From a virus, in UHGV virus genome UHGV-0038496: 64,000 nucleotides of DNA, one strand, 5' to 3'. The translations under genes were made by a program, and so were the position numbers. The notes beneath the pieces were generated by a model, which was not told the DNA's origin, made no database searches, and saw nothing but the letters and a program-made list of their open reading frames with translations. Every line of letters starts with the position of its first letter. Position 1 is the stretch's first letter. Positions 4,330 to 56,998 of this stretch are shown here, one piece after another.

Positions 4330-4345
4330 ATGTTCTCCTTATAAG

Positions 4346-4371
4346 GGGGAGTTGGCTGTACTGCTCTCCCC
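4346..4371 (-). other. GC-rich stem-loop without a U-tract, between primase-helicase and polymerase
   Basis: Stem GGGGAG/CTCCCC with 14-nt loop, immediately upstream of the polymerase RBS. Confidence 0.3.
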
Positions 4372-4386
4372 ACTCTCAGTTAAGCA

Positions 4387-6459
4387 TCAGAACGGACAAT
4401 CTTCATCCTCAGGGAACTCCTGTTGGATTACGCTTTGATCGTCCCCTCCATCATCCTCTTCTTCTCCTTCCGCGTCAACAGCTTTTGGTTGAGGTTTCAC
4501 ATCGGCGGTAACTTTACCTTCTGGAGTTTCCACAACAACATGCTCTTCATTGTCAAACATATCTTGCGGCCTCCAGACAATATCTCCATCTTTGTTCAGG
4601 AAGAAACCTGTCTCCTTATCCCACACCCAGTCGCTGGCATCGGAGAATTTACCAGTCTCAGGGTTCATAATCAGCACATCAGCTATGCCTAAGGTTTTAG
4701 CTGGCCTGTTTTTCAGGCTAACTAAACGAACACGCCCACGGGACCTGTCAGGCATCTCTTCTGCTTCTACCCCTATGACAACCCAACTGAGTTGCTCCAT
4801 CGATCCACTACCACGAAGGTTTTCTTTACGGACAGGATACCAGAACGGTAAAGCCCTGCCTTCTTTATCCTTCGGTGGGATAATCTCTGTGCGACGCAAG
4901 TGGGCAATCGCCAGGATGAACACATTAAATTGCTTACAGAACGCTGCAAGCTGTGTCATTGCAAGGTCTAACTCTTTGCGTTCATCTTTTACATTCAAAC
5001 CAGAGATAACCATCGACAGGTGATCCAGCACGATGTAACGACAATGATACAAGCACACCATCTGTTTCAGTTTTGTGATCAGGTCGTTTACAGGTATTGA
5101 ACCGAAGTGCCGGAATACCCTGATTTTGTCAGCATCAACCCAGGCTTTGTGGATATCAAAGTGCTCCTGCTCGGTTAGATACTTGCTTGGATCTTCCATG
5201 AAATTCTTGATATCGTATCCCAGCTGGTTAGCATACAGTGAGTTGATGGCTTCTTCTGGGTCTTCTTCCAGGTGAATCATACACAACCTGTCTTCTGGGT
5301 CGTAGTCATCAGCTTTAGCCACCGTAGGATCCATCAGGTATTTAGCTATCTGGTGCTCAATTTTCTTGGCTACCGTAGTCTTACCACCACCAGAAGGACC
5401 AGTCAGCATAACCAGTGTGCCTTTATGCAAACCTTTCAGCATTTTCTGTAGTTTAGGGAACTCTGCCCCAATATCAACCCCGTTGGTGGATTTTTTACGT
5501 AAATCTTCGATTGAGAAATCACTCAGGCCTGCTACAGCATCTGGCACGTATTTGATCGGGTTTTTGAACATATCGTGAATTTGATCATACTTTTTAGCCT
5601 GGAACAAATCACGGATATCTTTGTAACCCTCTGGATCATTTACTTCACTCGGATACTGCACATGGAAAACGTTGTCAGCCATCAGGAAAGCTGCAACATT
5701 GTGAGTGGCTTCAACACCTTTGGTGACATGTTTTAGCTTCTCAACATCGTTTGCAGCGTCGTTGTCGAAGGCCAGGACAATCTCATCAAAGCTACGAATG
5801 AACTTCTCGTTGTTGGCAAAAGCATCTACGGCATTCGCGCAACCACAGTTAAGCCCTACCACGTTGATTGTGGGAAAACCTTTAGCAGAACCACCATCCT
5901 GCACCGCTTTAATACCGTCAAGAACGCTTTGTGCCCACGCTTTAGCTTTTTTATTTGATGATGGATCTGTAGCTATTTTCCTCACCATCATCCATTCAGT
6001 CTGCCACGCAGCAATAACGTCGCCTTCACCTTCGCAGACAATGATTTTACGATGGTCCGAGCCTTCCCCAACCATTTTCTGACCAAAGAACTGGCTGTTG
6101 GCCTTAACAACAGAAACTACGGTAAAATGCCCCTTCTGCTCTTTTGGGATAGTCCAGTCACGTTTCTTGTAACCAGTCAGGTTGCCATACTTATCGTAAT
6201 ACGGAAAGTATGTAGCAACAATATCCACCCCGTTCTCTTCTGAAACTGCGGAACGGATCCCGAAGTATTTAGCAGCTTCTAAACCTATGTTTTGCTGCGG
6301 AACTTTCAGTATCTTTGTAGAAGCCAGAACACTTTCGACTGTTTCTTGCTCTTTCTCGTCTCTGTAATCTCTTCTCACACTCCCTCCGCTTCTCCATTTT
6401 GTTGCTTGTGGGTTAGGTTGACCAAACTTGGCATAAGCTGAACTAAAGAAATTACCCAT
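4387..6459 (-). CDS. DNA primase-helicase (T7 gp4-like; TOPRIM plus DnaB-like helicase)
   Basis: TOPRIM-like IIVCEGEGDVIAAW, Walker A MLTGPSGGGKTT, helicase motifs (VLDHLSMV, AIAHLRR); 690 aa. Confidence 0.85.
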   Translation of the reverse strand: MGNFFSSAYAKFGQPNPQATKWRSGGSVRRDYRDEKEQETVESVLASTKILKVPQQNIGLEAAKYFGIRSAVSEENGVDIVATYFPYYDKYGNLTGYKKRDWTIPKEQKGHFTVVSVVKANSQFFGQKMVGEGSDHRKIIVCEGEGDVIAAWQTEWMMVRKIATDPSSNKKAKAWAQSVLDGIKAVQDGGSAKGFPTINVVGLNCGCANAVDAFANNEKFIRSFDEIVLAFDNDAANDVEKLKHVTKGVEATHNVAAFLMADNVFHVQYPSEVNDPEGYKDIRDLFQAKKYDQIHDMFKNPIKYVPDAVAGLSDFSIEDLRKKSTNGVDIGAEFPKLQKMLKGLHKGTLVMLTGPSGGGKTTVAKKIEHQIAKYLMDPTVAKADDYDPEDRLCMIHLEEDPEEAINSLYANQLGYDIKNFMEDPSKYLTEQEHFDIHKAWVDADKIRVFRHFGSIPVNDLITKLKQMVCLYHCRYIVLDHLSMVISGLNVKDERKELDLAMTQLAAFCKQFNVFILAIAHLRRTEIIPPKDKEGRALPFWYPVRKENLRGSGSMEQLSWVVIGVEAEEMPDRSRGRVRLVSLKNRPAKTLGIADVLIMNPETGKFSDASDWVWDKETGFFLNKDGDIVWRPQDMFDNEEHVVVETPEGKVTADVKPQPKAVDAEGEEEDDGGDDQSVIQQEFPEDEDCPF

Positions 6460-18549: not shown

Positions 18550-20004
18550 GTGGACGCAAGAAGTTCAGAACTGATTTTAGCACAGAAACCAGAAGCTCTA
18601 CGTATGCTCCAGGGTGCTCGCATGTGGCTCATGGAAAGACTGAGCTTCTACGGTGTGCTCCTGTCAGGCTTACAATTTGTTGAGAACCACACATGGTGTG
18701 ACACTATTGCCACAGACCATAAGCGGATTTACTACAATCCAGAGTTCATCGTGGGTGTTTGTCAGGAACGCCGTGCTATCATTCTGCCTAAGTGCGATGA
18801 TAAAATGAAAGAACAGCTGGATGCTTTCTATGCACCTAAAACGCTTAAAGAGGTTGCTTTTCTCCTGTGTCATGAGATAGGTCACATCATTGCTGATCAC
18901 ATCAGCCGTGGTAAAGCCTTCTCTGATCACAACCTGTTTAACCAGGCTGCTGACCACGTTATTAATACGGGGCTGATGGAAGATTTAGCTGAACCGCCAT
19001 GTGCAATGTTCCCACACGGCATTCGCACACAGCTGAAAAAAGGCCAGCCGTTTGCATTCCTTGAGTATTGCTATTGTGATAAGAAATACCACGGGTGGAT
19101 AACTGAAAAAGTTTATGCAGACCTGGAAAAACAACAACAGCAGCAACAAGGTAAAGGACAAAGTGCCAGTGGTGGTGGTCTACGAGCCACAGATACTCAC
19201 ATGGGTGACGGACAAGGCCAGTCTGACAACCTCAGTGAAGCTATGGGCTACGAAAAAGGCAACCAGCCACCAATGACTCAGGCAGAGAGAGATGCAGCAA
19301 TGCAGGACTCTGGGGACATGATGGAAGCTGCTATGCAGGCGGCAGGTGGTGAAGGTCCGGCACAGGTGCGTGAGTGGATCAAAAATCGCAATAAGCCTAT
19401 TATCAACTATCTGGATGTGATTCGCCAGCGTATGTTGTCACACCGGAAAGCTGATATGACTTATCGCCGTCCGGCACGTCGCTCTGGTGCTTTAACTCAC
19501 ACATTACGTAACAAAGGGGCTATCAACAATCGCCAGTCTGTTATTCTCCCAGGTCGCAACCAGGAGAAAACGATTGACATAGTGGTTGCATTCGACGTAT
19601 CAGGCTCTATCTCTCAACGAACTCTGAAACGTATCACTTCAGAAATCGGTGGGTTGTGCAGCCTGTATAAAGAGTTCAAAGTTACAATGTTCTGTTGGTC
19701 AACAGAAGTTGGTGATGTTCAGGTATACACTCACCAGAATATTGCACAGATGCCTGACTACCAGATTAAGTCTACGTTCGGTACTCGCGCAGGCTGTGTG
19801 TTTGAATATCTGGATAAACATCTGTCTGATGTTCAGGATGTGATTATCTTTACTGACCTGTATCTTGAATCAGATTTTGAAAAAGAGGTTGACAGGAACA
19901 ACTGGGATAAGTATAATACGCTCTGGATCAGGACAGAAGGTGGTAACAAGAACTATACGCCATCTTTTGGCAGAACTATTGATTTGATTGAAAACGCTAA
20001 ATAG
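18550..20004 (+). CDS. putative zinc metallopeptidase-like plus von Willebrand factor A domain protein
   Basis: GTG start with RBS GGAGGA; HExxH motif LCHEIGHIIADH in the N-terminal half; vWA MIDAS-like VAFDVSGSIS in the C-terminal half; Q/G-rich low-complexity linker. Confidence 0.65.
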   Translation: MDARSSELILAQKPEALRMLQGARMWLMERLSFYGVLLSGLQFVENHTWCDTIATDHKRIYYNPEFIVGVCQERRAIILPKCDDKMKEQLDAFYAPKTLKEVAFLLCHEIGHIIADHISRGKAFSDHNLFNQAADHVINTGLMEDLAEPPCAMFPHGIRTQLKKGQPFAFLEYCYCDKKYHGWITEKVYADLEKQQQQQQGKGQSASGGGLRATDTHMGDGQGQSDNLSEAMGYEKGNQPPMTQAERDAAMQDSGDMMEAAMQAAGGEGPAQVREWIKNRNKPIINYLDVIRQRMLSHRKADMTYRRPARRSGALTHTLRNKGAINNRQSVILPGRNQEKTIDIVVAFDVSGSISQRTLKRITSEIGGLCSLYKEFKVTMFCWSTEVGDVQVYTHQNIAQMPDYQIKSTFGTRAGCVFEYLDKHLSDVQDVIIFTDLYLESDFEKEVDRNNWDKYNTLWIRTEGGNKNYTPSFGRTIDLIENAK

Positions 20005-20282: not shown

Positions 20283-20717
20283 ATGCTGACTAAACGCCAA
20301 TGCCAATCTTCGGGCGAAAAACAATGGAAGAAGGAGTGGTTTGGGGTAGAAGTATGCCAGCTTCGGCTGGGTACTTACCTTGACTACGTTTACTACCGTA
20401 ATAACTATGAGATTGTTCAGTACGAGGCCTTTTACACTAAACATCTGATAGAGATTAGCCGTAAGATTCAGGGGCCTGTGGGGACTAAAGAAGACTGGAA
20501 AGTCATCGTGCCGATGGATATGATCTCTGATCCGGCTCACCCAACAGATGATGAAAATATGATGGTCGAATTGATGTTAGGTCTTGACGACCTTGAAATT
20601 GCGATCTATCATATGTGTGTTGAGGCAGCTGCTGCTGACTTTGAAGAGAAGCTCGACGAGCAGGAATTACAAAGTCTTTTAACAGAAAAACTTAAAGAAT
20701 ATTTTACGGGGGATTGA
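20283..20717 (+). CDS. hypothetical protein
   Basis: 144-aa ORF. Confidence 0.45.
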   Translation: MLTKRQCQSSGEKQWKKEWFGVEVCQLRLGTYLDYVYYRNNYEIVQYEAFYTKHLIEISRKIQGPVGTKEDWKVIVPMDMISDPAHPTDDENMMVELMLGLDDLEIAIYHMCVEAAAADFEEKLDEQELQSLLTEKLKEYFTGD

Positions 20718-21981: not shown

Positions 21982-22148
21982 TGGAATCACCTTGTGGGCC
22001 AGGGGTTGTGGAATTGGTGCTGGCAGAATTTATCAGGCCGTACGTGGAAGAACAACCTCTTCACACAATGCCACCTGGACAATACGGTAAAGGTGAGTAT
22101 ATCAACGAACCAAGTAAACTGATTGATCTGATTTTGCAGTTTGACTAA
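21978..22148 (+). CDS. hypothetical small protein (56 aa)
   Basis: ORF below the track cutoff, read by hand (MMESPCGPGV...LILQFD); ATG overlaps the upstream stop. Confidence 0.3.
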   Translation: MMESPCGPGVVELVLAEFIRPYVEEQPLHTMPPGQYGKGEYINEPSKLIDLILQFD

Positions 22149-22168
22149 AAAAAGAAAGTAAAAATCCC

Positions 22169-22197
22169 TTGACATGGAATGATGGTTGTGTTAAGAT
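22169..22197 (+). promoter_or_regulatory. sigma70-like promoter (TTGACA, 17-nt spacer, TAAGAT)
   Basis: -35 TTGACA 22169-22174, -10 TAAGAT 22192-22197; the track ORF 22179..22403 starts inside this promoter, so its true start is taken as 22251. Confidence 0.5.
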
Positions 22198-22250
22198 GCT
22201 TCCATCAAATGAAGAGAAGCACAGTTCAACAGATAAATAAGGAGTCAGCC

Positions 22251-22403
22251 ATGAAATACAATATCGACAATTTAGCTTGTTTCAAAGAAGATTTTGCAGA
22301 TTCTATGGATCAGGCTTGTCCGGGTGAAATTCCTGTACAAGGTGCAGACAAAGATGAAGTAAAAGAGTTCTGCATTGATAATCTTGGCGCATTCGATAAA
22401 TAG
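22251..22403 (+). CDS. hypothetical small protein (50 aa)
   Basis: ATG at 22251 (MKYNIDNLACF...) with a strong RBS AAGGAG 7 nt upstream, downstream of the promoter. Confidence 0.5.
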   Translation: MKYNIDNLACFKEDFADSMDQACPGEIPVQGADKDEVKEFCIDNLGAFDK

Positions 22404-22414
22404 GGGGGTGGGTT

Positions 22415-22558
22415 ATGAAAATAAGACTCGAAGTTTTAGCACTGGTTGCAATGGGTTTGATAGTTCTGGGTGTTCATGCTATGGATGTTGATTGGGGCGC
22501 AGTAGCTGAGAGCATGGCTCAGGCACATCCGATGGGCCTGATGCAAATGAACTTCTAA
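22415..22558 (+). CDS. hypothetical small hydrophobic protein (47 aa)
   Basis: Hand-read ORF MKIRLEVLALVAMGLIVLGVHA... with G-rich RBS; followed directly by a terminator. Confidence 0.35.
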   Translation: MKIRLEVLALVAMGLIVLGVHAMDVDWGAVAESMAQAHPMGLMQMNF

Positions 22559-22566
22559 CTGTATAG

Positions 22567-22592
22567 GCCCCGCTTCGGCGGGGCTTATTTTT
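22567..22592 (+). terminator. rho-independent terminator
   Basis: GCCCCGC-TTCG-GCGGGGC hairpin followed by TTATTTTTGTCTTTT. Confidence 0.7.
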
Positions 22593-22629
22593 GTCTTTTC
22601 CACACAACTGATTGAGTGAAAGAAAACTG

Positions 22630-22658
22630 TTGACATGCCCCGTGCGTTGTGGTATAAA
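22630..22658 (+). promoter_or_regulatory. sigma70-like promoter (TTGACA, 17-nt spacer, TATAAA)
   Basis: -35 TTGACA 22630-22635, -10 TATAAA 22653-22658, upstream of the ATG at 22690. Confidence 0.55.
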
Positions 22659-22689
22659 TACTCCATCAACAGAACGAAGGACCACTACG

Positions 22690-22965
22690 ATGACTAAAGA
22701 ACAGTTACGCTACCTTGAATACGGCCTGTCGATGGTGCAGGAAGGTCTGTCTGCTGCATACCGCATGAATATGCAAGCCAAAGCTAACGATGCCCGTATC
22801 AACCAGATCCTGGATATGGACTTTGCCGAGTTCACAGTTCATGCCAAAGAGATCCCACAGCTGATAAAAGAAAATGAAGAACTGGATCGCAAGATTCATT
22901 GCATCATTGAAGCTGCGGAAAACACACATGCTTTTGCATACAAATTTTTGAAAAATAAGGAGTAG
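22690..22965 (+). CDS. hypothetical protein (91 aa)
   Basis: Start moved to ATG at 22690 (MTKEQLRYLEYG...) with RBS GAAGGA, downstream of the promoter. Confidence 0.5.
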   Translation: MTKEQLRYLEYGLSMVQEGLSAAYRMNMQAKANDARINQILDMDFAEFTVHAKEIPQLIKENEELDRKIHCIIEAAENTHAFAYKFLKNKE

Positions 22966-22968
22966 GCT

Positions 22969-23460
22969 ATGGATTCTGGCTACGATGACGGTAGTGGGGA
23001 TATTTTTGATTACAGCAGTTTAACCACTTCTCTGCCGTTTGAAACACGTAATGGCACGAAGATTGCTGCATTTGACTTCGATAATACGTTCAATGCAGAG
23101 CCTTTCATCTTCGCCTCATTTGTTGGCGCGTTGCAGAAGGCTGGTTGGTATTGCTGCTTTGTCACATTCCGGTTCCCTGAACAGGACAGCTGTGACATTC
23201 GAATGTGGGCTGAAAAGCTGGGTATGGATATCTTCTACACTTCTGGTGTACAGAAAGCAGCTTACATGGCTACGATGGGCATCTTCCCAGATATCTGGGT
23301 TGATGATAACCCAGCAGGTATCCCAGCTAAAAACCAACTGGAGTTCGCCAGGGATGAAGTGATGTATAAACGTAAAGCTAAACAGAATAACTGGCCTCTT
23401 GTTATAGAGGACTACCCAGAACCTGAAGCTGAACCAGAGGAGTACTTACATGAAAAATAA
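22969..23460 (+). CDS. putative HAD-superfamily phosphatase / nucleotidase-like protein
   Basis: Motif I-like AAFDFDNTF (DxDxT) near the N-terminus; 163 aa. Confidence 0.4.
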   Translation: MDSGYDDGSGDIFDYSSLTTSLPFETRNGTKIAAFDFDNTFNAEPFIFASFVGALQKAGWYCCFVTFRFPEQDSCDIRMWAEKLGMDIFYTSGVQKAAYMATMGIFPDIWVDDNPAGIPAKNQLEFARDEVMYKRKAKQNNWPLVIEDYPEPEAEPEEYLHEK

Positions 23461-23635
23461 AATCAGACAACTCTACCACTTCGTGATGTGGAGAGGTTTA
23501 CGTGCATGGGCTAAAGCTCATCGTCGCTTCTTCGGTTACGGTGATGCTTATATCCATCTACATCTGGCTGCTATTCAGCACCACGATGAATACATCGAAG
23601 CAATCGTTCTTGGGGACAGAGACTTCTTACATTGA
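23450..23635 (+). CDS. hypothetical protein
   Basis: 61-aa ORF overlapping the upstream gene end. Confidence 0.35.
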   Translation: MKNKIRQLYHFVMWRGLRAWAKAHRRFFGYGDAYIHLHLAAIQHHDEYIEAIVLGDRDFLH

Positions 23636-23646
23636 TAAAAATTTTG

Positions 23647-23674
23647 TTGACAGGGACGTTAAATTGTGTATAAT
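23647..23674 (+). promoter_or_regulatory. sigma70-like promoter (TTGACA, 16-nt spacer, TATAAT)
   Basis: -35 TTGACA 23647-23652; consensus -10 TATAAT 23669-23674 preceded by TG; about 35 nt upstream of the RBS GAGGAG and the ATG at 23708. Confidence 0.6.
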
Positions 23675-23707
23675 ACACCACATCAAAGAGAGATGAGGAG
23701 TGCAGAA

Positions 23708-23893
23708 ATGAGTAAACGTTATCCTTCAGACAATCCTTATGTTATCGCACTTGGTGCACTGTGTGTTATGCTTGTACTTGTTGCAGTGATTGTGGCAGAC
23801 TATCTGGACATTCAGCAGCAGATCGAGTGCATGAAGCTGTTAAAAGCTAAAGTTGCAGCATTCCAGGCAGATATTTTCAACATTACACACTGA
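23708..23893 (+). CDS. small membrane protein (one predicted transmembrane helix)
   Basis: MSKRYPSDNPYVIALGALCVMLVLVAVIVADYL...; hydrophobic helix; RBS GAGGAG. Confidence 0.5.
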   Translation: MSKRYPSDNPYVIALGALCVMLVLVAVIVADYLDIQQQIECMKLLKAKVAAFQADIFNITH

Positions 23894-23901
23894 GGCCGGA
23901 T

Positions 23902-24042
23902 ATGGACTTGTATTTCATGGTAGACTTAGCTCTGCAAGGTTTTCTTCCAGGTGTCTTCCTGGATGCTCCACCACTCTGGTTGGCCTTCTGGTTGATGATT
24001 GTGGTAGTGATTAACGGTATTCTGGATGCATGTAAAAAGTGA
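23902..24042 (+). CDS. small membrane protein (46 aa)
   Basis: Hand-read ORF MDLYFMVDLALQGFLPGVFLDAPPLWLAFWLMIVVVINGILDACKK; RBS GAGG. Confidence 0.4.
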   Translation: MDLYFMVDLALQGFLPGVFLDAPPLWLAFWLMIVVVINGILDACKK

Positions 24043-24051
24043 GGTGCCAAA

Positions 24052-24249
24052 ATGTCTCTGTATGATATTATTATGTTTATCTTTTGGTTAATTTTTATTG
24101 TTCTGCAAGCTGTAGCGGGTGTACGAGTAGCGGAAATGAAAGGCTACGAGAAGTGGTGGCAGAAACTGCTGGCATTCTTGTTTGCTCCGTACGCAATCAT
24201 CATGATTGTTTTGTTCCTAAAAGATAAAAAACATCCTTCTGAAGAATAA
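24052..24249 (+). CDS. small membrane protein (two predicted transmembrane helices)
   Basis: MSLYDIIMFIFWLIFIVLQAVAGV...LLAFLFAPYAIIMIVLFL...; RBS GAGGTG. Confidence 0.5.
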   Translation: MSLYDIIMFIFWLIFIVLQAVAGVRVAEMKGYEKWWQKLLAFLFAPYAIIMIVLFLKDKKHPSEE

Positions 24250-24282
24250 TCCTTCCTCTTAATCATCTCCTCAAACAAAAAA

Positions 24283-24301
24283 GGGGGCCATCAAGGCCCC
24301 C
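24283..24301. terminator. bidirectional rho-independent terminator at the convergence of plus-strand early genes and the minus-strand structural cluster
   Basis: Hairpin GGGGGCC-ATCAA-GGCCCCC flanked by an A-run on the plus strand (a U-run for the minus-strand transcript) and by AAATTGTTT on the plus side. Confidence 0.7.
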
Positions 24302-24327
24302 AAATTGTTTCCTCTGTTATTATGCTA

Positions 24328-27300
24328 TTACGCTTCCTTGAAGTTAAATCCCGCACGACAAGCTGTCTGAGAGATTCCTTGTACAGAAACAGAAAGCGAT
24401 ATGTAGGTTTTACCGTTTTCCATATCGTTCCAGTTGAGTTCATAACCGCACCAACCAGATTCACTCAGTGCAACCGTAGGAGAAGAATAACCGAATTTGG
24501 CTAATCTTGACGGGTCGCCTGTGTAAATCGTTAGCTGGCCTGACGGTACACCTTTAAGTTCTGGGATATACATACCACCAAAAACTCTCATCGGGTAACT
24601 TACCAGTGTCTGGTAGCTACACGGTTGAGCAGAGAATGTCTCCATATTGCTTGTACCGTAAGGTTGCGGATAAGCCCCGTCAGTCGGGTTACCTACCCAC
24701 GCCCTGTATTGCGGGTGAATCTCTTTAACCGTAATCGTGGTCGTCTTCGTGAAGACTGTTCCGTTAGTATCAGTACAGGAGTATGTGATAACAGCTGTAC
24801 CTACACCCACGAATTTAACCTGACCTGTATCAGTGGTGATCGTGACGGCATCCGGGTTATTCGTTGACCAGGACTCTGAAGCAGCAACTGCGCCATCAGG
24901 TTGCATAGTCGGTTTACGCATAACACCGCTACCACCTTTGATACCAATTCCGTTGAACGGGTTAGGCAGATCGCTCAAGCCTGTAATAACAGTACCGGAA
25001 CCACATTTCCAGTTATAGAGTTTACTAAAGGTATATGAACCTTCGCCGTAAGAAACTTTAGCTGTAATTGTGATAACCGCTGAACCGTTTTTCAGAGCGT
25101 TGATAGCGAATTTACGGTCAGTGAGTTTGGTAGCAACAAAGACTGTTGGATCACTTGAAGTAACCTCAAAGCTCAGACTTGCTGCACCACCAGGTAAGAA
25201 GTTGTCCGTAACGTAGAAGCCTGACTGCGTACCTGACTGGCTATAAGGATAAGTACCACGTTCCTGATAGGCATTCGTTGGAGAATAGAAGCCTTTCAGC
25301 AAGAACTCATAGGTCACGCTTGAACCAGCGGCCCATGTGTGGTTATTGTTCATTAAAGCCCAGCTGTCAGAGTTACTGAATCCATAAATGGAGACACTAC
25401 CTGATTTCGCAGTTACCCTCGGAGATATTTCCAAAGCACCTTTGGTGTAAGGGCCTGCCATATTATCTCTTAAAGTACTGGTTTCATCAGAAGCCTCAAC
25501 CATGGCGGTAAGTTTTGTACCAGCGGATTCTTTACCTGTTTCATCCGTCCAGCGAATTTCAACTGGAACACACCATGCACCAAGTTCAGCGTTCCCGTTA
25601 GGTATTGTACCATCAGTTGGAGTATGGTAAGTGTATGCAAGATCTTTTCTTACCACGAACTCAGCGAGGTTGCTGTAAGCAGAGTTTGCAGCAATTATTG
25701 CACCGTCCAGAGCTTTTTGCGGGTAAATCAGTATATATTCATCCGCAATCCAACTGGTGTTGGGCATACCCCACCATTTCTTATCGCTGTCTGGAGACAG
25801 TTCGCATCCTGTTCTAACATCCATATACTGAATCCGTTTCGTATATTCGATATTAGAATAAGTTTGTGCAACTCTAGGACCCAAAGCCCCCGAAGTTTTG
25901 TCATAAACCATCATAGATAGTGTGACAGGATCCGGGCGTGATATACCGAAGCATTCTACCAGTTTTTCTTTCGGTAATGCACAACAGTTGTCATTAGACG
26001 CATTGGTTGTGGTGTAAACCAATTTGTTATTACTGTCCCATACCTGCAACTGAATGTTGCCAGGTGTCCAGCTTGTGTACTTGGACATGTCGTCGAAGTA
26101 CAGGAACAAATCCCCATCTGCGTTCGTATTTGCATACGTGTTAGCTGAGGTTTTATTCCAACATGGTAAGGTGAACCAACGAGGAATCTGTTTCTGAATA
26201 AGATTACCGCCTATTGCCTGACAAATTTCTCTAGAGAGAACTTCACGGGCAAGAGGTTTGTAACCCCATTCGATCATTGACCCATTGTAACCTTCCACTT
26301 TGTAGGCATCTGAACCTTCCTGGAACAGGATACGAGTCACAGCTGAGTTATAAGAGTTTACAGGTTTAACTGCAAACTGAGAGTAAACCCTCATCCTCAT
26401 ATTCTGCCATTCTCTACCACCGATCTCCCATTGGTTGTCATAGCAACGCATCAGAGAGGTCCAGCAGATCGGAGCCATACGCAAGCCATCGCCGAATCCT
26501 TTTGTCTGGTCATTGAATATTTTCCAGAGGAAAATGTTTACTGACCACATGGCTCTGTGGAAGTTGAACCAGTTGACAGAACGAGCAGCGTTTTGAAGAG
26601 AAGTACCATCAAGATTAGGCCACACAGCATTAACCAGCATATCTTCTGTACCTGCATCCAGAACTACCCCTCTGATTCTCGGAACACGATTTGCACGGTC
26701 TGCTTCGCACCAATTCTTGATTAGCTGGAGTTGTCTACCATAAACCTCGGACTGATCGGTTTTCTCCAACATCACCTGTTTAACATGAACAATAGGATCA
26801 CCATAGTTACCGTTAATAGCCTCTGGTAGCATAGTCTGACCAAAGTCAAAACGGATACCACTCAAAGTGTTTCCACTGTCGGTTGCCCAATCAGCTACGG
26901 AGCTGAAGTCAAACTCAAACAGCCACCAGCCTGCACCTAACAGAATACGTCTGCATTTTGAGGTGTCTGTGCTGGTGATTTTCCGAACTTCCCTATACCC
27001 CTCGCTATTAATATTATAATAGCAATCAATGATGTAAGGTGATGTACCTGAAGCATTACCTGTAGGCACATTTTTACCGATCTGATCACAACTAACAACC
27101 AGTTTTACTTGCTGGAATCCTGAGGACATTGGTACTGACATAGCGGTAGCAGCCAGATCACCACGCGGATCGTGAACTTTCTCAATACAGATGAAACCAT
27201 CCAGAACACTTGAACCAGATGGTGTTACATTCTGCGGAATAAAGTTGCAGGTCTGGTTCATTTGAGTCCATGAACCTATCTCTTTATCCATCAGGTTGCA

Positions 27301-30159
27301 ACGGGCATCGCTGTAAAGCTCACCAGGCCCCCAGTAATACTGAGCATAGCAGTTAAAGAACCATCTTGTTCCATCATATTTGTTTTTATCCACCTGGACT
27401 TCGTTGGCCTGTTTCAGCAAGAATGTATGAGTCTCCGTGAAGATAGCAGGCAGTGTCTGGCATTGGCGAGGCACATAGCCTTGTCCGTTGTTGAACCATT
27501 GGTTACAGCAATAATCACGCAAATAATCGTAACTGCAATATTTGCTGTTAGCATCTTCACTATCGAACAGCGCCAGGTTAGTACCACCAGCACACATGAT
27601 ATATTCATTAACAAATTTATCACTGCGTACAGTTTTTGAATCGACTGTGAACCATTTGGCTTCTGGATCTGTATCCTTAACACGGGTATCTTTAATACAG
27701 ACGTAACACAGGTTAGTAACACCCAGTTTTTTCTGCATATCACGTTTCATACCAAGCATGAATTTGGTGGCACTGGCACCAGGTGTAACAGTGTAATACC
27801 AGTCAGCATCGTGTGCACCAACAACACGAGGATCCTCTTTGAACGCAGCAATGCTGTATGCTACGTTGTTAGCAGGATTAGCAGGTGTTACTTTCGCCTG
27901 AATATCCCCATAGCTGTTCTTAACAATCTCTACAGTGATATCCCCACCGCGTGGTGTACGGATAATCTTACGTGAAGTATCGGCAGAACCACCACCCAGG
28001 GTTAACCCGATATTCTGGTGAGTACCGTCATAGTATTCAATCGTTGATTCCCAACGTAAACCGAAGAAACCAGCATCGTAGCTGACGACTTTCAATGTGC
28101 GTGCACCTCCAGCAGGTTTTTGAGGCGTAGGCCACGGGTTAGCATGGTCGTGAACGTTCAGAGAAGTCCCATTCTGTTCATTGACCTGGTACATTTTACC
28201 ACCAGCACCGTTAGGGTTGTATTCCCACAATGCCTGATTAGCACCTATGTATTTGTACATCTCAGGGCGTTGGTCGTAAATTTCCTGAGTCACATCGTAG
28301 GTCACAGAACCTGCATCTTTTCTGTGCAATCTGATTTTGAATGCATCAGCGTTTTCAGTTGCAGGCTGTGCAGTATCCAGACCTAAGTAAGTCGTGCTAC
28401 CCAAAGATAAGGAACGGTTCAAACCTGTAGTGTACCATGCACTATCAGCTGGGATCATAGGTATGATCGTGTTCCAGTTAATGTTTCTGGTAAGATGTGT
28501 GTGAGTACCAGTTTTATCATGATAGGTGATTTTTACATGGTACAGACCACGACGATCAATGTTTTTGTTCTGTTGGGTAATAAGACAATCCCATAAACCG
28601 AATTCCGAATGGTTAGCATAAGCTGTATACAAAGGATCAGAAACAACTGTCTGTGCAGCATTGGTGATCTCAACTTTGTCGATAAACCACGTTGCACCCC
28701 TAGGCAGAGGTTTAACTCTCAGTTGAACTGTATCCCCAACATAGATGTTGTTAACAGGGTGTTCAGACCCCCATCCGTTGACTCTACTAACTTCTTCAAC
28801 CTCAAAACTGGATACCGGAACGTTCTTAATCCAGTTTGGGTCTACCTGTGTGAAACCTTGAGAACTAAGTTGACCACCGAACAGGTTATTGCAGCCTGCG
28901 AAGTTACCACGAGGAACACCAGACCACCAAAGTTTACCGTTCACCACGGTCAGTGTGCCCATGTAACCTTCACGGTTAATACCTTGGAAGTAAACATTCT
29001 CTGCCCAACTGACAGGTGTACGTTGCTCAACATATGCAGCTGTAGCAATCGCCTGTTTGTGTTGGAACTGTGCACGGGGGTTGGCTTCAGCAGAAGACCA
29101 GCCAACATCGTTACACAGGTTACGAGAGAAGCCTCTGTACTGTTTTGAACCATTATTGAAGAAGATACCATTGGTAGCGTGACCTCTTGCAATAATCACT
29201 TCGTGAGTGTAGGTAATGTTCAATGAACGCCAGGTTTTATCTCCCCAGGAATTCTGTCCATAAAATACGTATACAGGTAAGCCAGAACCGTCTGTGTGAA
29301 TACGTTCTGTAGCAACTATGGCCCCATTCGGACCACACATAAACCATTTGTAGGTTTCACTATTACCAAGCAGATTTGCCCATGTACCGTGCTCTGGTGG
29401 ATAAACCAGGGTAAGCTGACTGTTATTACGCAAGAAATCGTAACCAGCAACCCAATAGCCGTCTGGGCCACCATAGATCACAGAGTTATCATGAACTTCC
29501 AGATTCAATGCAGGGTTTTTCCACTGGCCTGTTACAGGATCCTGAGAAGTTTCGGCAATTTTAACAGGGTTAGCATGTTGGTTTTTATCCACATGCAAAG
29601 AACCGTAGGTGTTATTACCTGAACCATAGATATCCCAGATACCTTCACCTTCAGGTGCACCAATCACCCAGCAAGTGTTGTTCATACCGCCACAGACTTC
29701 GATTAGGCGCTCAGGATGCGTATCAAGCCCCAGAGTGGTCGTAATTTGTGAAGGTAATGCAGTCCACTTAGTTACACAAACATCGTTACCACCAGCCGCT
29801 GTGGAGCCGATAAGACCAGCTGTACAACCGATGTAAAAGAATTTATGATCGAAACTTTCAATCACAAAAGAACGGTCTGCTCTCCAGACATGGTTGATGT
29901 TACGGATCGACTCGTTCGGATAAATACATTCATTGCGGTTGCCTGTTCCGCATTCGCCATATTTGTTAGCGCCTGTCAGAACCAGTAAACCATCCGCATA
30001 AAGAATTGCCAGACTATTTACATATGCTACTGAGTTGCTTGTGCCATCACTTTTATCTATTGGATAGGACAGAACAGCAAGTTCCTTGATCCCATCCTTC
30101 GAGTCCAGATGGAAATTAGCAAGTTTTAACAGAGGAATTGGAAACATTGTGTTCTCCAT
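24328..30159 (-). CDS. very large tail fibre / adhesin-like structural protein (1943 aa)
   Basis: N-terminal region with RCC1-like repeats (LVLTGANKYGECGTG, YGSGNNTYGSL); C-terminal Ig-like segments (AVITITAKVSYGEG..., VTITTDTGQVKFVGVGTAVITYS...); RBS GGAGAA. Confidence 0.6.
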   Translation of the reverse strand: MENTMFPIPLLKLANFHLDSKDGIKELAVLSYPIDKSDGTSNSVAYVNSLAILYADGLLVLTGANKYGECGTGNRNECIYPNESIRNINHVWRADRSFVIESFDHKFFYIGCTAGLIGSTAAGGNDVCVTKWTALPSQITTTLGLDTHPERLIEVCGGMNNTCWVIGAPEGEGIWDIYGSGNNTYGSLHVDKNQHANPVKIAETSQDPVTGQWKNPALNLEVHDNSVIYGGPDGYWVAGYDFLRNNSQLTLVYPPEHGTWANLLGNSETYKWFMCGPNGAIVATERIHTDGSGLPVYVFYGQNSWGDKTWRSLNITYTHEVIIARGHATNGIFFNNGSKQYRGFSRNLCNDVGWSSAEANPRAQFQHKQAIATAAYVEQRTPVSWAENVYFQGINREGYMGTLTVVNGKLWWSGVPRGNFAGCNNLFGGQLSSQGFTQVDPNWIKNVPVSSFEVEEVSRVNGWGSEHPVNNIYVGDTVQLRVKPLPRGATWFIDKVEITNAAQTVVSDPLYTAYANHSEFGLWDCLITQQNKNIDRRGLYHVKITYHDKTGTHTHLTRNINWNTIIPMIPADSAWYTTGLNRSLSLGSTTYLGLDTAQPATENADAFKIRLHRKDAGSVTYDVTQEIYDQRPEMYKYIGANQALWEYNPNGAGGKMYQVNEQNGTSLNVHDHANPWPTPQKPAGGARTLKVVSYDAGFFGLRWESTIEYYDGTHQNIGLTLGGGSADTSRKIIRTPRGGDITVEIVKNSYGDIQAKVTPANPANNVAYSIAAFKEDPRVVGAHDADWYYTVTPGASATKFMLGMKRDMQKKLGVTNLCYVCIKDTRVKDTDPEAKWFTVDSKTVRSDKFVNEYIMCAGGTNLALFDSEDANSKYCSYDYLRDYCCNQWFNNGQGYVPRQCQTLPAIFTETHTFLLKQANEVQVDKNKYDGTRWFFNCYAQYYWGPGELYSDARCNLMDKEIGSWTQMNQTCNFIPQNVTPSGSSVLDGFICIEKVHDPRGDLAATAMSVPMSSGFQQVKLVVSCDQIGKNVPTGNASGTSPYIIDCYYNINSEGYREVRKITSTDTSKCRRILLGAGWWLFEFDFSSVADWATDSGNTLSGIRFDFGQTMLPEAINGNYGDPIVHVKQVMLEKTDQSEVYGRQLQLIKNWCEADRANRVPRIRGVVLDAGTEDMLVNAVWPNLDGTSLQNAARSVNWFNFHRAMWSVNIFLWKIFNDQTKGFGDGLRMAPICWTSLMRCYDNQWEIGGREWQNMRMRVYSQFAVKPVNSYNSAVTRILFQEGSDAYKVEGYNGSMIEWGYKPLAREVLSREICQAIGGNLIQKQIPRWFTLPCWNKTSANTYANTNADGDLFLYFDDMSKYTSWTPGNIQLQVWDSNNKLVYTTTNASNDNCCALPKEKLVECFGISRPDPVTLSMMVYDKTSGALGPRVAQTYSNIEYTKRIQYMDVRTGCELSPDSDKKWWGMPNTSWIADEYILIYPQKALDGAIIAANSAYSNLAEFVVRKDLAYTYHTPTDGTIPNGNAELGAWCVPVEIRWTDETGKESAGTKLTAMVEASDETSTLRDNMAGPYTKGALEISPRVTAKSGSVSIYGFSNSDSWALMNNNHTWAAGSSVTYEFLLKGFYSPTNAYQERGTYPYSQSGTQSGFYVTDNFLPGGAASLSFEVTSSDPTVFVATKLTDRKFAINALKNGSAVITITAKVSYGEGSYTFSKLYNWKCGSGTVITGLSDLPNPFNGIGIKGGSGVMRKPTMQPDGAVAASESWSTNNPDAVTITTDTGQVKFVGVGTAVITYSCTDTNGTVFTKTTTITVKEIHPQYRAWVGNPTDGAYPQPYGTSNMETFSAQPCSYQTLVSYPMRVFGGMYIPELKGVPSGQLTIYTGDPSRLAKFGYSSPTVALSESGWCGYELNWNDMENGKTYISLSVSVQGISQTACRAGFNFKEA

Positions 30160-38175: not shown

Positions 38176-39666
38176 TTAAATGATTTGCTGGAATGTGATG
38201 TTGTTTTCATCAAGGTCAAACACCTCTGACATTGCAGCTGTAATGTCAGTAGCTGTATAAGCCTCATCTGAAGCACCAATCGGTTTCACATGGATGCTCA
38301 ATTTGTTAAAACGACCGATACTAACAGCAGCAGAAGCAGCACCTACAAGCTGAATGTTGTAAAGCGTATCTGCAATATCGAGGCCGTTAACAACTGCCAT
38401 CATGGCATCTATGATTGATTCTTTTTCGGTAGCAGAAAGTGCCACACCGGAATACGTTACCTTAACGTCCAGACGGTAAGTATTTGCTTTGGAGTAGTAA
38501 ATTCTTTCCACCTGACCATCTGAGGTGTTGATATCGTAGAACAGGTTACCGTAAGTCCTGTTCGTACAAGCAACCGTATCATACAGAGCCTGACAAATAT
38601 CAGCAGTGGAGCCACCAAACACAACCACCTGGAACTTATAAGGCGGGATGCCTAAGTTGTTAGTCTTATCTGTGTTGTTGGTGAATACCCTGACTTTACT
38701 TACCCCAGCCACATTGTGAATCGCACTCAGGATCGCAGGACGAGTAGCTTTAGCAGTTACCGTGTTGGTGCTTGTAGCTCTCAGGCGATACTCAGCGTCT
38801 GTCTCTACGTTTGTACCTTCGTTGAACATCTCTCTGTTGGTGAGGGAGATGAAACCACTAGGTGTCGGAGAGATCGTGGTAACAGTGTTTGCTTCACGGG
38901 ACATTTCACCTGCTTCAGAAGCGATGACTTCCAGCACGACTGTACGTTCACCAACAATCGGAGAAATACGGAAGTCAACTTTACTGTTCAGGCCTACACG
39001 TTCAAGAGTGGCATCATAGCCAATCCACAACGTACCTGTGGACATATCCACTTGAATCAAATCTTCGTTCAAAAGCGTGGAGTTGTCAACAATAAATTGC
39101 TTGATCTCACCATAGAAACTAACAAGGTCTGTGGAATCCAGTGCCTTATCAGTAAGAATCATGGTTTTGGTAAAAATAGTGCCATCAACCTGATTGGTCA
39201 TCTGGAATATGTATTTACCAATTCTGAGATCCGGTGCTGTTATCTTGTGAGCAATTATGTTGCCTGCTACCTGTGCATTACTTGCGAGTTTGAAGTTACC
39301 ACTGTCAATGCTATAAGTTTCTGTGTCGTAAATCATATTATAAGGGACAGTACTGTTGATTGTCAACTGGCACTGACCAGAAGCCTTAGTACGCCCTCTA
39401 CGATAAACACCTTGTCTCCCCAGTAATTCATCAAGGTAGATGCCTTCTGCCCCGTACAGCGTCTGGGAGGCGTATACAGCAGCCATCATGAGGATTAACT
39501 GGTATTCACGTTCGTTAAAGATTGTGGTGAGCTTGTCAGCAACCGAGTTGCTCTGGACGTTGAAATTATCCCCGAACGCCCTGATCAAGCTCTGCTTAGT
39601 TTCAACGATCAAATCGTTAAGTGTGGGCAATATAAACCCAGCATCTGTTAAACCATATTTAGCCAT
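38176..39666 (-). CDS. putative baseplate J-like protein
   Basis: Track ORF trimmed to ATG at 39664-39666 (MAKYGLTDAG...) with RBS GAGAGGAAAT, downstream of a terminator-promoter pair; size and position match baseplate wedge proteins. Confidence 0.4.
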   Translation of the reverse strand: MAKYGLTDAGFILPTLNDLIVETKQSLIRAFGDNFNVQSNSVADKLTTIFNEREYQLILMMAAVYASQTLYGAEGIYLDELLGRQGVYRRGRTKASGQCQLTINSTVPYNMIYDTETYSIDSGNFKLASNAQVAGNIIAHKITAPDLRIGKYIFQMTNQVDGTIFTKTMILTDKALDSTDLVSFYGEIKQFIVDNSTLLNEDLIQVDMSTGTLWIGYDATLERVGLNSKVDFRISPIVGERTVVLEVIASEAGEMSREANTVTTISPTPSGFISLTNREMFNEGTNVETDAEYRLRATSTNTVTAKATRPAILSAIHNVAGVSKVRVFTNNTDKTNNLGIPPYKFQVVVFGGSTADICQALYDTVACTNRTYGNLFYDINTSDGQVERIYYSKANTYRLDVKVTYSGVALSATEKESIIDAMMAVVNGLDIADTLYNIQLVGAASAAVSIGRFNKLSIHVKPIGASDEAYTATDITAAMSEVFDLDENNITFQQII

Positions 39667-56969: not shown

Positions 56970-56998
56970 ATTATAGCATTGTACTCACTTTTTGTCAA
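56970..56998 (-). promoter_or_regulatory. consensus sigma70 promoter (TTGACA, 17-nt spacer, TGC-TATAAT) followed by a short inverted repeat
   Basis: Read on the minus strand: TTGACA (rc of 56993-56998), 17 nt, TATAAT (rc of 56970-56975) preceded by TGC; the hairpin ATGCG-ATAA-CGCAT lies at about +5 to +20. Confidence 0.6.

Follow-up and report, generated by a model that had tools for sequence, protein, structure and literature searches.

Most of the small inner-membrane proteins of phages whose function is known act either in superinfection exclusion or in the control of lysis. Among the exclusion proteins, Imm and Sp of T4, Llp of T5 and Cor are small, located in the envelope, made early and accessory to replication in virulent phages, and the llp (T5) and cor (T1, phi80, N15) genes adjoin receptor-binding or tail-fibre genes. 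Morons, for their part, were defined for temperate phages, and their expression is from the prophage. In T4-type phages, the cassettes of hyperplastic regions are bounded by early promoters and stem-loops, or PeSLs (PMC2839356, PMC4122927). The present analysis concerns a cassette of three tiny open reading frames (ORF1, ORF2 and ORF3) in the viral genome UHGV-0038496, of which a stretch of 64,000 nucleotides (nt), hereafter the window, was analysed. The features of the cassette are as follows, with protein lengths in amino acids (aa) and Shine-Dalgarno sequences abbreviated SD.

23637-23674, plus strand: early-type sigma-70 promoter, with an A-tract (23637-23640), TGTTGAC (23645-23651), the -35 box TTGACA (23647-23652) and the -10 box TATAAT (23669-23674)
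23708-23893, plus strand: ORF1, 61 aa, SD GAGGAG at 23695-23700
23902-24042, plus strand: ORF2, 46 aa, SD GAGG at 23892-23895, overlapping the ORF1 stop codon
24052-24249, plus strand: ORF3, 65 aa, SD GAGGT at 24041-24045, overlapping the ORF2 stop codon; an optional member of the cassette
24283-24301, both strands: GC-rich hairpin terminator, GGGGGCC-ATCAA-GGCCCCC, with a stem of 7 GC pairs and the loop ATCAA

We tentatively read this cassette, with a confidence that stays low, as an early accessory inner-membrane module with a superinfection-exclusion or immunity-like role, and not as the lysis cassette of the phage. As with Imm, Sp, Llp and Cor, its products would be small envelope proteins made early and accessory to the replication of a phage whose clade is presumably virulent, and its position beside, and convergent to, a giant structural gene recalls that of llp and cor. 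It differs from these systems in that no sequence relationship to them was found in Pfam, PHROGs or NCBIfam (including Pfam Imm_superinfect and the PHROG imm and sp families), in the sizes and topologies of its proteins, and in that it consists of two or three translationally coupled proteins in one unit, for which the exclusion role is one that we infer.

The organization of the locus resembles that of PeSL cassettes and lambdoid morons, since a strong sigma-70-like promoter and a stem-loop terminator flank orphan ORFs. The cassette has its own sigma-70 promoter, which travels with ORF1, and a factor-independent terminator, which is shared with the convergent gene, and the genes on either side of it have different cargo between them in relatives. 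As in PeSL cassettes, a neighbouring unit (22178-22630) appears to have been gained or lost as a block, and the contents of the slot differ among close relatives. Unlike in the T4-type phages, promoter and hairpin do not form one composite motif, the indel that removes ORF3 is not bounded by promoters, and another phage subfamily is involved; unlike the morons, the cassette is carried by a phage that is presumably virulent. With these reservations, the trio appears from its sequence and context to represent new orphan families within accessory cassettes of the moron/hyperplastic-region type.

Promoter, gene layout and terminator

The promoter reported in the initial annotation matches the TTGACA/TATAAT consensus at 12/12 positions (23647-23674), with a spacer of 16 nt between the -35 and -10 boxes and a predicted transcript start for the cassette near 23681. 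The 'TG' noted with it is not that of a canonical extended -10: TGTG abuts TATAAT, which places TG at -16/-15 and -14/-13 instead of the canonical -15/-14, and the scanner scores it as 'no'. Perfect TTGACA-N15-18-TATAAT sites number four in the window, against 0.08 expected from shuffles; the other three, with spacers of 17 or 18 nt, are at 19889-19917 (+), 39337-39366 (-) and 56970-56998 (-). Read with its A-tract, the cassette promoter is AAAA-N4-TGTTGAC-N17-TATAAT, an exact match to the putative early-promoter consensus given in the legend to Fig. 7 of the paper on Certrevirus CB7, the running text of which gives N3/N19 (PMC7344957). In Vequintavirinae genomes, the early-promoter motif concentrates in the region of short early ORFs (PMC7344957).

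Eleven loci were compared, namely the window, L004-L007 and L076-L081, of which L081 is a fragment of 1 kilobase (kb). Four sister contigs were recovered from IMG/VR via a neighbouring PNK-like gene, without using the trio as a query, and further sister loci were taken from Logan and ENA contigs. The TTGACA upstream of ORF1 is invariant in five aligned loci, even with unrelated upstream DNA, and in 9/11 loci a TTGACA -35 box lies about 55-60 nt 5' of the ORF1 start (with the -10 box at about 35 nt), whatever lies upstream. Because this position is kept regardless of the upstream content, the conserved unit is the promoter together with ORF1 and ORF2.

The three ORFs of 61, 46 and 65 aa were recovered as initially annotated, and each has a GAGG-type SD 6-7 nt 5' of its ATG. 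In ORF2 and ORF3, the SD shares bases with the TGA that ends the ORF before, an arrangement typical of translational coupling. A longer form of ORF1, with a GTG start at 23666, was rejected, as this codon is inside the promoter and has no SD, and the extension is not conserved.

The hairpin that ends the cassette lies 34 nt past the ORF3 stop and 27 nt past the stop of a convergent 1943-aa gene, and has a fold energy of -19.4 kcal/mol on the plus strand and -21.8 kcal/mol on the minus strand. Its description as a bidirectional terminator is plausible, but the element is asymmetric, with a strong U-tract on the minus strand (TTTTTTGTTT) and a marginal one on the plus strand (AAATTGTTTC). It is kept at the end of the operon in 9/11 loci (the window, L004-L006 and L076-L080), and was not found in the other two of the 11, L007 and the 1-kb fragment L081. 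Rfam searches of both strands of 22000-25000 gave matches far below the gathering scores, driven by the terminator hairpins.

The three proteins, their relatives and the slot that holds them

Membrane segments and topology were derived from Hessa-scale sums, the positive-inside rule and AlphaFold2 secondary structure, and the one or two hydrophobic helices per protein expected from the initial annotation were found in all three ORFs. ORF1 has one strong transmembrane (TM) segment at residues 12-29 (-4.4 kcal/mol), preceded by the short basic N-terminus MSKRY and followed by a helical extension of about 30 residues; the AlphaFold2 model is one continuous helix over residues 10-60 (predicted local distance difference test, pLDDT, of 87). 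Since K3 and R4 precede the TM segment and no K or R occurs in the 15 residues after it, ORF1 is likely a bitopic membrane protein with its N-terminus inside and its C-terminus outside (N-in/C-out). Its last 31 residues are net acidic and predicted to be periplasmic, and show a 3-4 hydrophobic spacing when judged by eye; an amphipathic moment of this helix was rejected, its value at 100 degrees not being above that of shuffles. Within the family, C19 is invariant and C41 nearly so.

ORF2 has one clear TM segment at residues 25-41 (-1.9 kcal/mol) and a weaker N-terminal hydrophobic helix that contains D8 and Q12. This very hydrophobic peptide is modelled as a helix at 3-21, a kink at P23 and a helix at 23-45 (pLDDT 81), with a turn at DAPP, several acidic residues (D2, D8, D21, D/N38, D42) and a C-terminal KK. 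ORF3 has two TM segments, at residues 6-21 and 39-56 (about -3 kcal/mol each), joined by a nearly invariant basic loop, VAEMKGYEKFWQK, which is the best-conserved part of the protein, and it ends in the tail KDKKHPSEE, the topology of which is ambiguous. Hydrophobicity at the level of the trio is reached by only 6.7% of the ATG-initiated ORFs of 40-90 aa in the six frames, and, besides the trio, the only non-nested small TM ORFs preceded by an SD in the 64 kb are one of 47 aa at 22415 and one of 64 aa at 23502-23696. The latter was judged spurious, as it overlaps the conserved phrog_12006 gene out of frame. A paralogous relationship between ORF1, ORF2 and ORF3 was also rejected, with hhalign probabilities of 0.4-6%.

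ORF1 and ORF2 are carried by 4/4 of the IMG/VR contigs retrieved independently of the trio, and likewise by the further Logan and ENA contigs, and ORF2 is directly 3' of ORF1 in every locus examined. The ratio of nonsynonymous to synonymous divergence (dN/dS, Nei-Gojobori) is 0.15 for ORF1 and 0.14 for ORF2, at a dS of 0.5-0.6, and 0.42 for ORF3, for which three sequences only were available; the flanking genes give 0.06-0.09. Homologue clusters number 59 for ORF1 (74-90% identity, 58/59 of them exactly 61 aa long), 17 for ORF2 and 14 for ORF3, and the SD sites coupled to the preceding stop codons are conserved among the sister loci. By these measures ORF1, ORF2 and ORF3 are all real genes under purifying selection. 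ORF3 is the variable member: it is missing as a clean indel of about 210 bp in L004 and L005, and is also missing in L076-L079. In L080, ORF2 is followed by a different 61-aa protein with two TM segments (4343-4528), 22% identical to ORF3 and likewise provided with a charged tail (...KKPVDNE), which would be either a very divergent ORF3 or an analogous replacement.

The nucleotide identity of ORF1-ORF2 to L005, L076, L077 and L080 is 79-84%, against 88-93% for the upstream flanks, and the dN of the cassette is about 5 times that of the flanking genes, so that the cassette diverges faster than its upstream flanks; in the comparison with L006 and L007, the identity is 86-88% over an aligned block of which the cassette forms part. 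A recent foreign acquisition, considered on the basis of composition, was rejected, the GC content of 0.40-0.45 being equal to that of the flanks.

None of the three ORFs had a useful match in Pfam (E<=1), PHROGs (E<=0.1), NCBIfam (E<=10) or PADLOC, and tblastn against 50,697 phage records returned nothing relevant. A word-indexed search of 5.8 billion proteins retrieved only relatives of the same clade, 74-100% identical; the long contigs recorded for some of them have the size of phage genomes, with a maximum of about 148 kb, while many are known only from pieces a few kb long. When a hidden Markov model profile of ORF1 was run exhaustively against 1.84 billion protein representatives, it found only its own cluster, the ORF1 profile found the same four contigs only in IMG/VR, the ORF3 profile had no match in 185,579 species-representative bacterial genomes, and a sequence search of the PDB gave no match. 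As for type I toxins of the Hok-Gef kind, the best NCBIfam match was to TisB, with E=5.5 and 6.9 bits against a cut-off of 38. All three proteins are thus, as far as these searches reach, orphans restricted to one phage clade.

The phage itself is an uncultivated rV5-like myophage, with a distant relationship to rV5 (Vequintavirinae). The window belongs to the metagenomic ENA contig ERZ27287477:k141_617802 (140,706 bp), in which the same three genes are called, and about 76 kb of the phage genome lie outside it. There was no near match to the window among the 50,697 phage records. The PNK-like gene is about 67% identical in nucleotide sequence to that of rV5-like phages (Vequintavirus), and the plus-strand genes around the cassette have rV5-like counterparts in the same order, with 26-61% protein identity. 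The two genes that bound the slot occupied by the cassette are the following.

23450-23635, plus strand: gene for a soluble protein of 61 aa (phrog_12006, PHROG E 1.5e-18), the last gene shared with rV5 before the variable slot
24328-30159, minus strand: convergent structural gene of 1943 aa, the other boundary of the slot

The phrog_12006 gene is 93-95% identical in the sister contigs and 53% identical to that of rV5-like phages, and the 1943-aa gene is the positional counterpart of the gene for a 'structural protein with Ig domain' in the rV5 derivative rV5_ev147 (LR597647.1). Between these two boundaries, rV5-like phages carry three unrelated soluble proteins, and rV5 lacks the cassette entirely. 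The sister phages have inserts of 2-3.5 kb with varied cargo upstream of ORF1 (YadA_anchor proteins, lipoproteins, a DUF7338 protein, an endonuclease VII-like gene, tiny TM proteins, tRNA-Arg(CCT) and tRNA-Met), and downstream of ORF2 they have ORF3, the 22%-identical two-TM substitute, a 172-aa lipoprotein or a DUF5384 protein. In L077 (4507-8186), the 3' two-thirds of the giant gene are only 64-79% identical or unalignable, and the product has 1711 aa instead of 1943. Because its 3' part diverges in this way, the giant gene adjoining the cassette is a variable gene and probably one of host interaction. By its contents, the slot is a hotspot for envelope proteins beside a giant structural gene. 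Both this context and the recognition of ORF1-ORF2 as the conserved core are additions to the initial annotation.

Possible functions of the cassette

An exclusion or immunity-like role is favoured here because of the type of promoter, the cargo of the slot, the fast evolution of the cassette and its position beside a structural gene. According to this proposal, the cassette would be an early transcription unit complete in itself, which closes the plus-strand early operon at its 3' end and lies in a hyperplastic slot that extends from the last conserved early gene to the giant convergent structural gene. Host RNA polymerase would read the consensus promoter once the phage DNA enters the cell, and the three ORFs would be translationally coupled. 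ORF1 and ORF2, the conserved core, would probably insert together into the host inner membrane, the former as a bitopic N-in/C-out helix with a periplasmic extension and the latter as an acidic helix-kink-helix peptide, with the two-TM hairpin of ORF3 as an optional add-on. The module may then alter the envelope of the infected cell to the benefit of the phage, in a role such as that of Imm and Sp in T4; membrane insertion, topology, the formation of a complex and the exclusion function are all, in this scheme, predictions.

Several points weigh against this proposal. The early expression of the cassette is suggested by promoter type alone, and since two perfect consensus promoters are within the minus-strand structural region, the motif is not exclusive to early genes. 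Hydropathy sums and the positive-inside rule, in place of a dedicated predictor, underlie the predicted topology of the trio, and the orientation of ORF3 is ambiguous, with 4 K/R in the loop against 3 in the tail. The searches in Pfam, PHROGs, NCBIfam and PADLOC and with the ORF1 profile revealed no homology of the trio to the exclusion proteins Imm, Sp, SieA or HK97 gp15. The presence of ORF1-ORF2 in every independently retrieved sister contig (5 of 5) is no less compatible with an important core function than with an accessory role. Finally, the soluble endolysin of the phage requires a holin, and the subfamily has no known one.

Small bacterial membrane regulators and some phage early proteins act by binding host membrane targets. 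The trio may accordingly be seen as modulators of host membrane proteins, for takeover or counter-defence, which would bind a target in the host inner membrane and inhibit or redirect it; the divisome, transporters, sensor kinases and membrane-bound abortive-infection effectors would be examples of such targets. We consider this doubtful, though worth retaining. The early-type promoter and the location of the unit at the end of an early operon are in line with it, as are the size and architecture of the proteins, which resemble those of small membrane-protein regulators, and their fast evolution, which fits an arms race; the conserved polar residues within the ORF2 helices (D8, Q12, D/N38) and the loop that is invariant in ORF3 point to surfaces for specific binding. 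On the other hand, no homology to such proteins and no PADLOC or NCBIfam signal was found, no candidate target can be named, and the computed evidence does not separate such modulators from superinfection exclusion proteins. Among the options of the initial annotation (holins, exclusion or host takeover), the context of a hyperplastic slot with envelope cargo beside a giant structural gene tilts towards exclusion or takeover.

Of the same options, a lysis timing set is unlikely by our estimate. It would have ORF1 and/or ORF2 as a holin, or as a holin/antiholin pair, that releases the GH104 endolysin, with ORF3 as an optional modulator. The rV5-type GH104 endolysin was not found in the 64-kb window, and the search for it elsewhere, proposed at the outset, located it in three sister contigs, at a distance of about 60-80 kb from the trio and with 82-83% identity to its rV5-like counterpart. 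The enzyme is soluble, with no N-terminal signal-anchor, and a hole-forming holin is therefore required. No small membrane gene is next to it, its sole small neighbour encoding a secreted 67-aa protein. Such a protein, of 67-68 aa with a signal peptide and two Cys, is conserved directly 3' of the GH104 endolysin in rV5-like phages and in the clade (L012 3528-3731, JLBYU08_5, L009 2506-2712), and by its topology it is not a holin. The product annotated as 'putative holin' JLBYU08_164 (OK272482.1) was also rejected as a holin: it is 47% identical to the window ORF at 20283-20717 (+) and has no TM or hydrophobic segment, so that the annotation is almost certainly wrong.

In favour of a lysis function, all three proteins are small and have at least one TM helix (one or two, by the Hessa scale and AlphaFold2), and ORF1-ORF2 is conserved in all of the sister genomes examined. 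In V5-like phages the spanins adjoin the terminase, there is no classic lysis cassette and no holin has been identified; across the Vequintavirinae, the genes for lysis are dispersed over the genome (PMC6658697, PMC7344957). The holins that come closest are those of class II, such as S21, and the candidate of Certrevirus, CB7_82. The latter has 65 aa and two TM segments (PMC7344957), the same length and TM count as ORF3, which also has a charged C-terminal tail. These likenesses are offset by the early-type promoter, by the lack of any holin-family match (Pfam, PHROGs, NCBIfam, or tblastn of the 50,697 phage records) and by the dispensability of ORF3. The cassette adjoins neither a muralytic enzyme nor spanins, a weak criterion as the lysis genes of Vequintavirinae are scattered. 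Furthermore, holins typically end in a short, highly charged and usually basic cytoplasmic tail, whereas the extramembrane part of ORF1 is acidic to neutral and predicted to be periplasmic. A dual-start motif is not conserved, several homologues having Ile in place of Met6 of ORF2, rV5 does without the cassette, and better candidates may sit in the part of the genome outside the window. The verdict that this is not a simple lysis cassette is thus borne out by the distance to the endolysin in sister phages, the type of promoter and the dispensable ORF3, while the argument from a missing endolysin, correct for the window, loses force where lysis genes are scattered and the holin of the subfamily is still to be found. 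More improbable still is the specific form in which ORF1-ORF2 would act as a two-component holin of a new kind, or as a new holin/antiholin pair, in this Vequintavirinae-like clade, set apart from endolysin and spanins and under an early-type promoter.

ORF1 and ORF2 also call to mind two-component spanins (Rz/Rz1), as ORF1 would be N-in/C-out and bitopic with a periplasmic helix and conserved Cys, and is followed by a small gene with overlapping signals. However, the periplasmic part of ORF1 has only about 30 residues and ORF2 has neither a signal peptide nor a lipobox, so that neither qualifies as a spanin, and rV5-like phages already have canonical spanins beside the terminase (PMC6658697, PMC7344957).

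That the trio is functionless cargo, i.e. spurious or decaying ORFs carried along by promoter- and terminator-mediated shuffling, is very improbable: their status as orphans without relatives outside one clade, the frequent insertions and deletions in the region and the relaxed constraint on ORF3 (dN/dS 0.42) would fit, but purifying selection on ORF1 and ORF2 (dN/dS of about 0.15 at a dS of 0.5-0.6), a length strictly kept over dozens of variants, conserved SD sites coupled to preceding stops and the presence of ORF1-ORF2 in all sister loci speak against it.

As found, the locus encodes three small orphan membrane proteins without assigned function, of a kind common in phage genomes. If the exclusion reading is true, rV5-like phages would gain their first described immunity module at the level of the envelope. 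This bears on therapy and biocontrol cocktails, where rV5-like phages are in wide use and exclusion between members matters. If the proteins act in lysis instead, they would supply the holin for one branch of a subfamily still without a known one. Under either reading, Vequintavirinae-like phages have a promoter-rich hyperplastic slot, as in T4-type phages, in which envelope proteins (YadA-type autotransporters among them) are exchanged, as are lipoproteins, tRNAs and tiny membrane proteins.

Further contents of the slot and its surroundings

YadA_anchor genes (Pfam PF03895, E 1e-16 to 1e-18) lie between the phrog_12006 gene and ORF1 in L005 (5391-6230), L007 (5272-6630) and L080 (994-2691). 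They resemble trimeric autotransporter adhesins, here in a presumably virulent rV5-like clade. The N-terminus of the L007 protein resembles a signal peptide; in L005, such an N-terminus is found on a separate ORF of 111 aa immediately upstream. Other putative envelope proteins of the slot are encoded at L007 7753-8271, L005 6704-7354, L006 6063-6650, and L080 4599-5117 and 5174-5764. The lipoproteins among them are a glycine-rich one of 172 aa with an LTGC lipobox and those of 195 and 216 aa with LCGC; a DUF5384 protein of 196 aa lacks a lipobox and has an N-terminus that resembles a signal peptide.

The window also contains, at 22169-22630 upstream of the slot, a second small transcription unit. 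It starts with a promoter, TTGACA-17-TAAGAT, at 22169, and comprises an acidic 50-aa ORF (22251-22403), the 47-aa TM ORF mentioned above (22415-22558) and, at 22563-22588, a strong terminator. A further promoter, TTGACA-17-TATAAA, lies downstream at 22630. Between the two TTGACA promoters, the block 22178-22630 is the one missing from L006 and L007, a pattern reminiscent of the shuffling between PeSL motifs that has been described in hyperplastic regions of T4-type phages (PMC2839356).

No tRNA gene was detected in the 64-kb window. In three sister loci, tRNA-Arg(CCT) is found directly after the phrog_12006 gene (L006 4741-4891, together with tRNA-Met; L077 1822-1896; L080 546-620). In L006, a copy of the trio-type promoter is located at 4686, just 5' of the tRNAs, and this locus keeps a promoter copy on each side of its insert.

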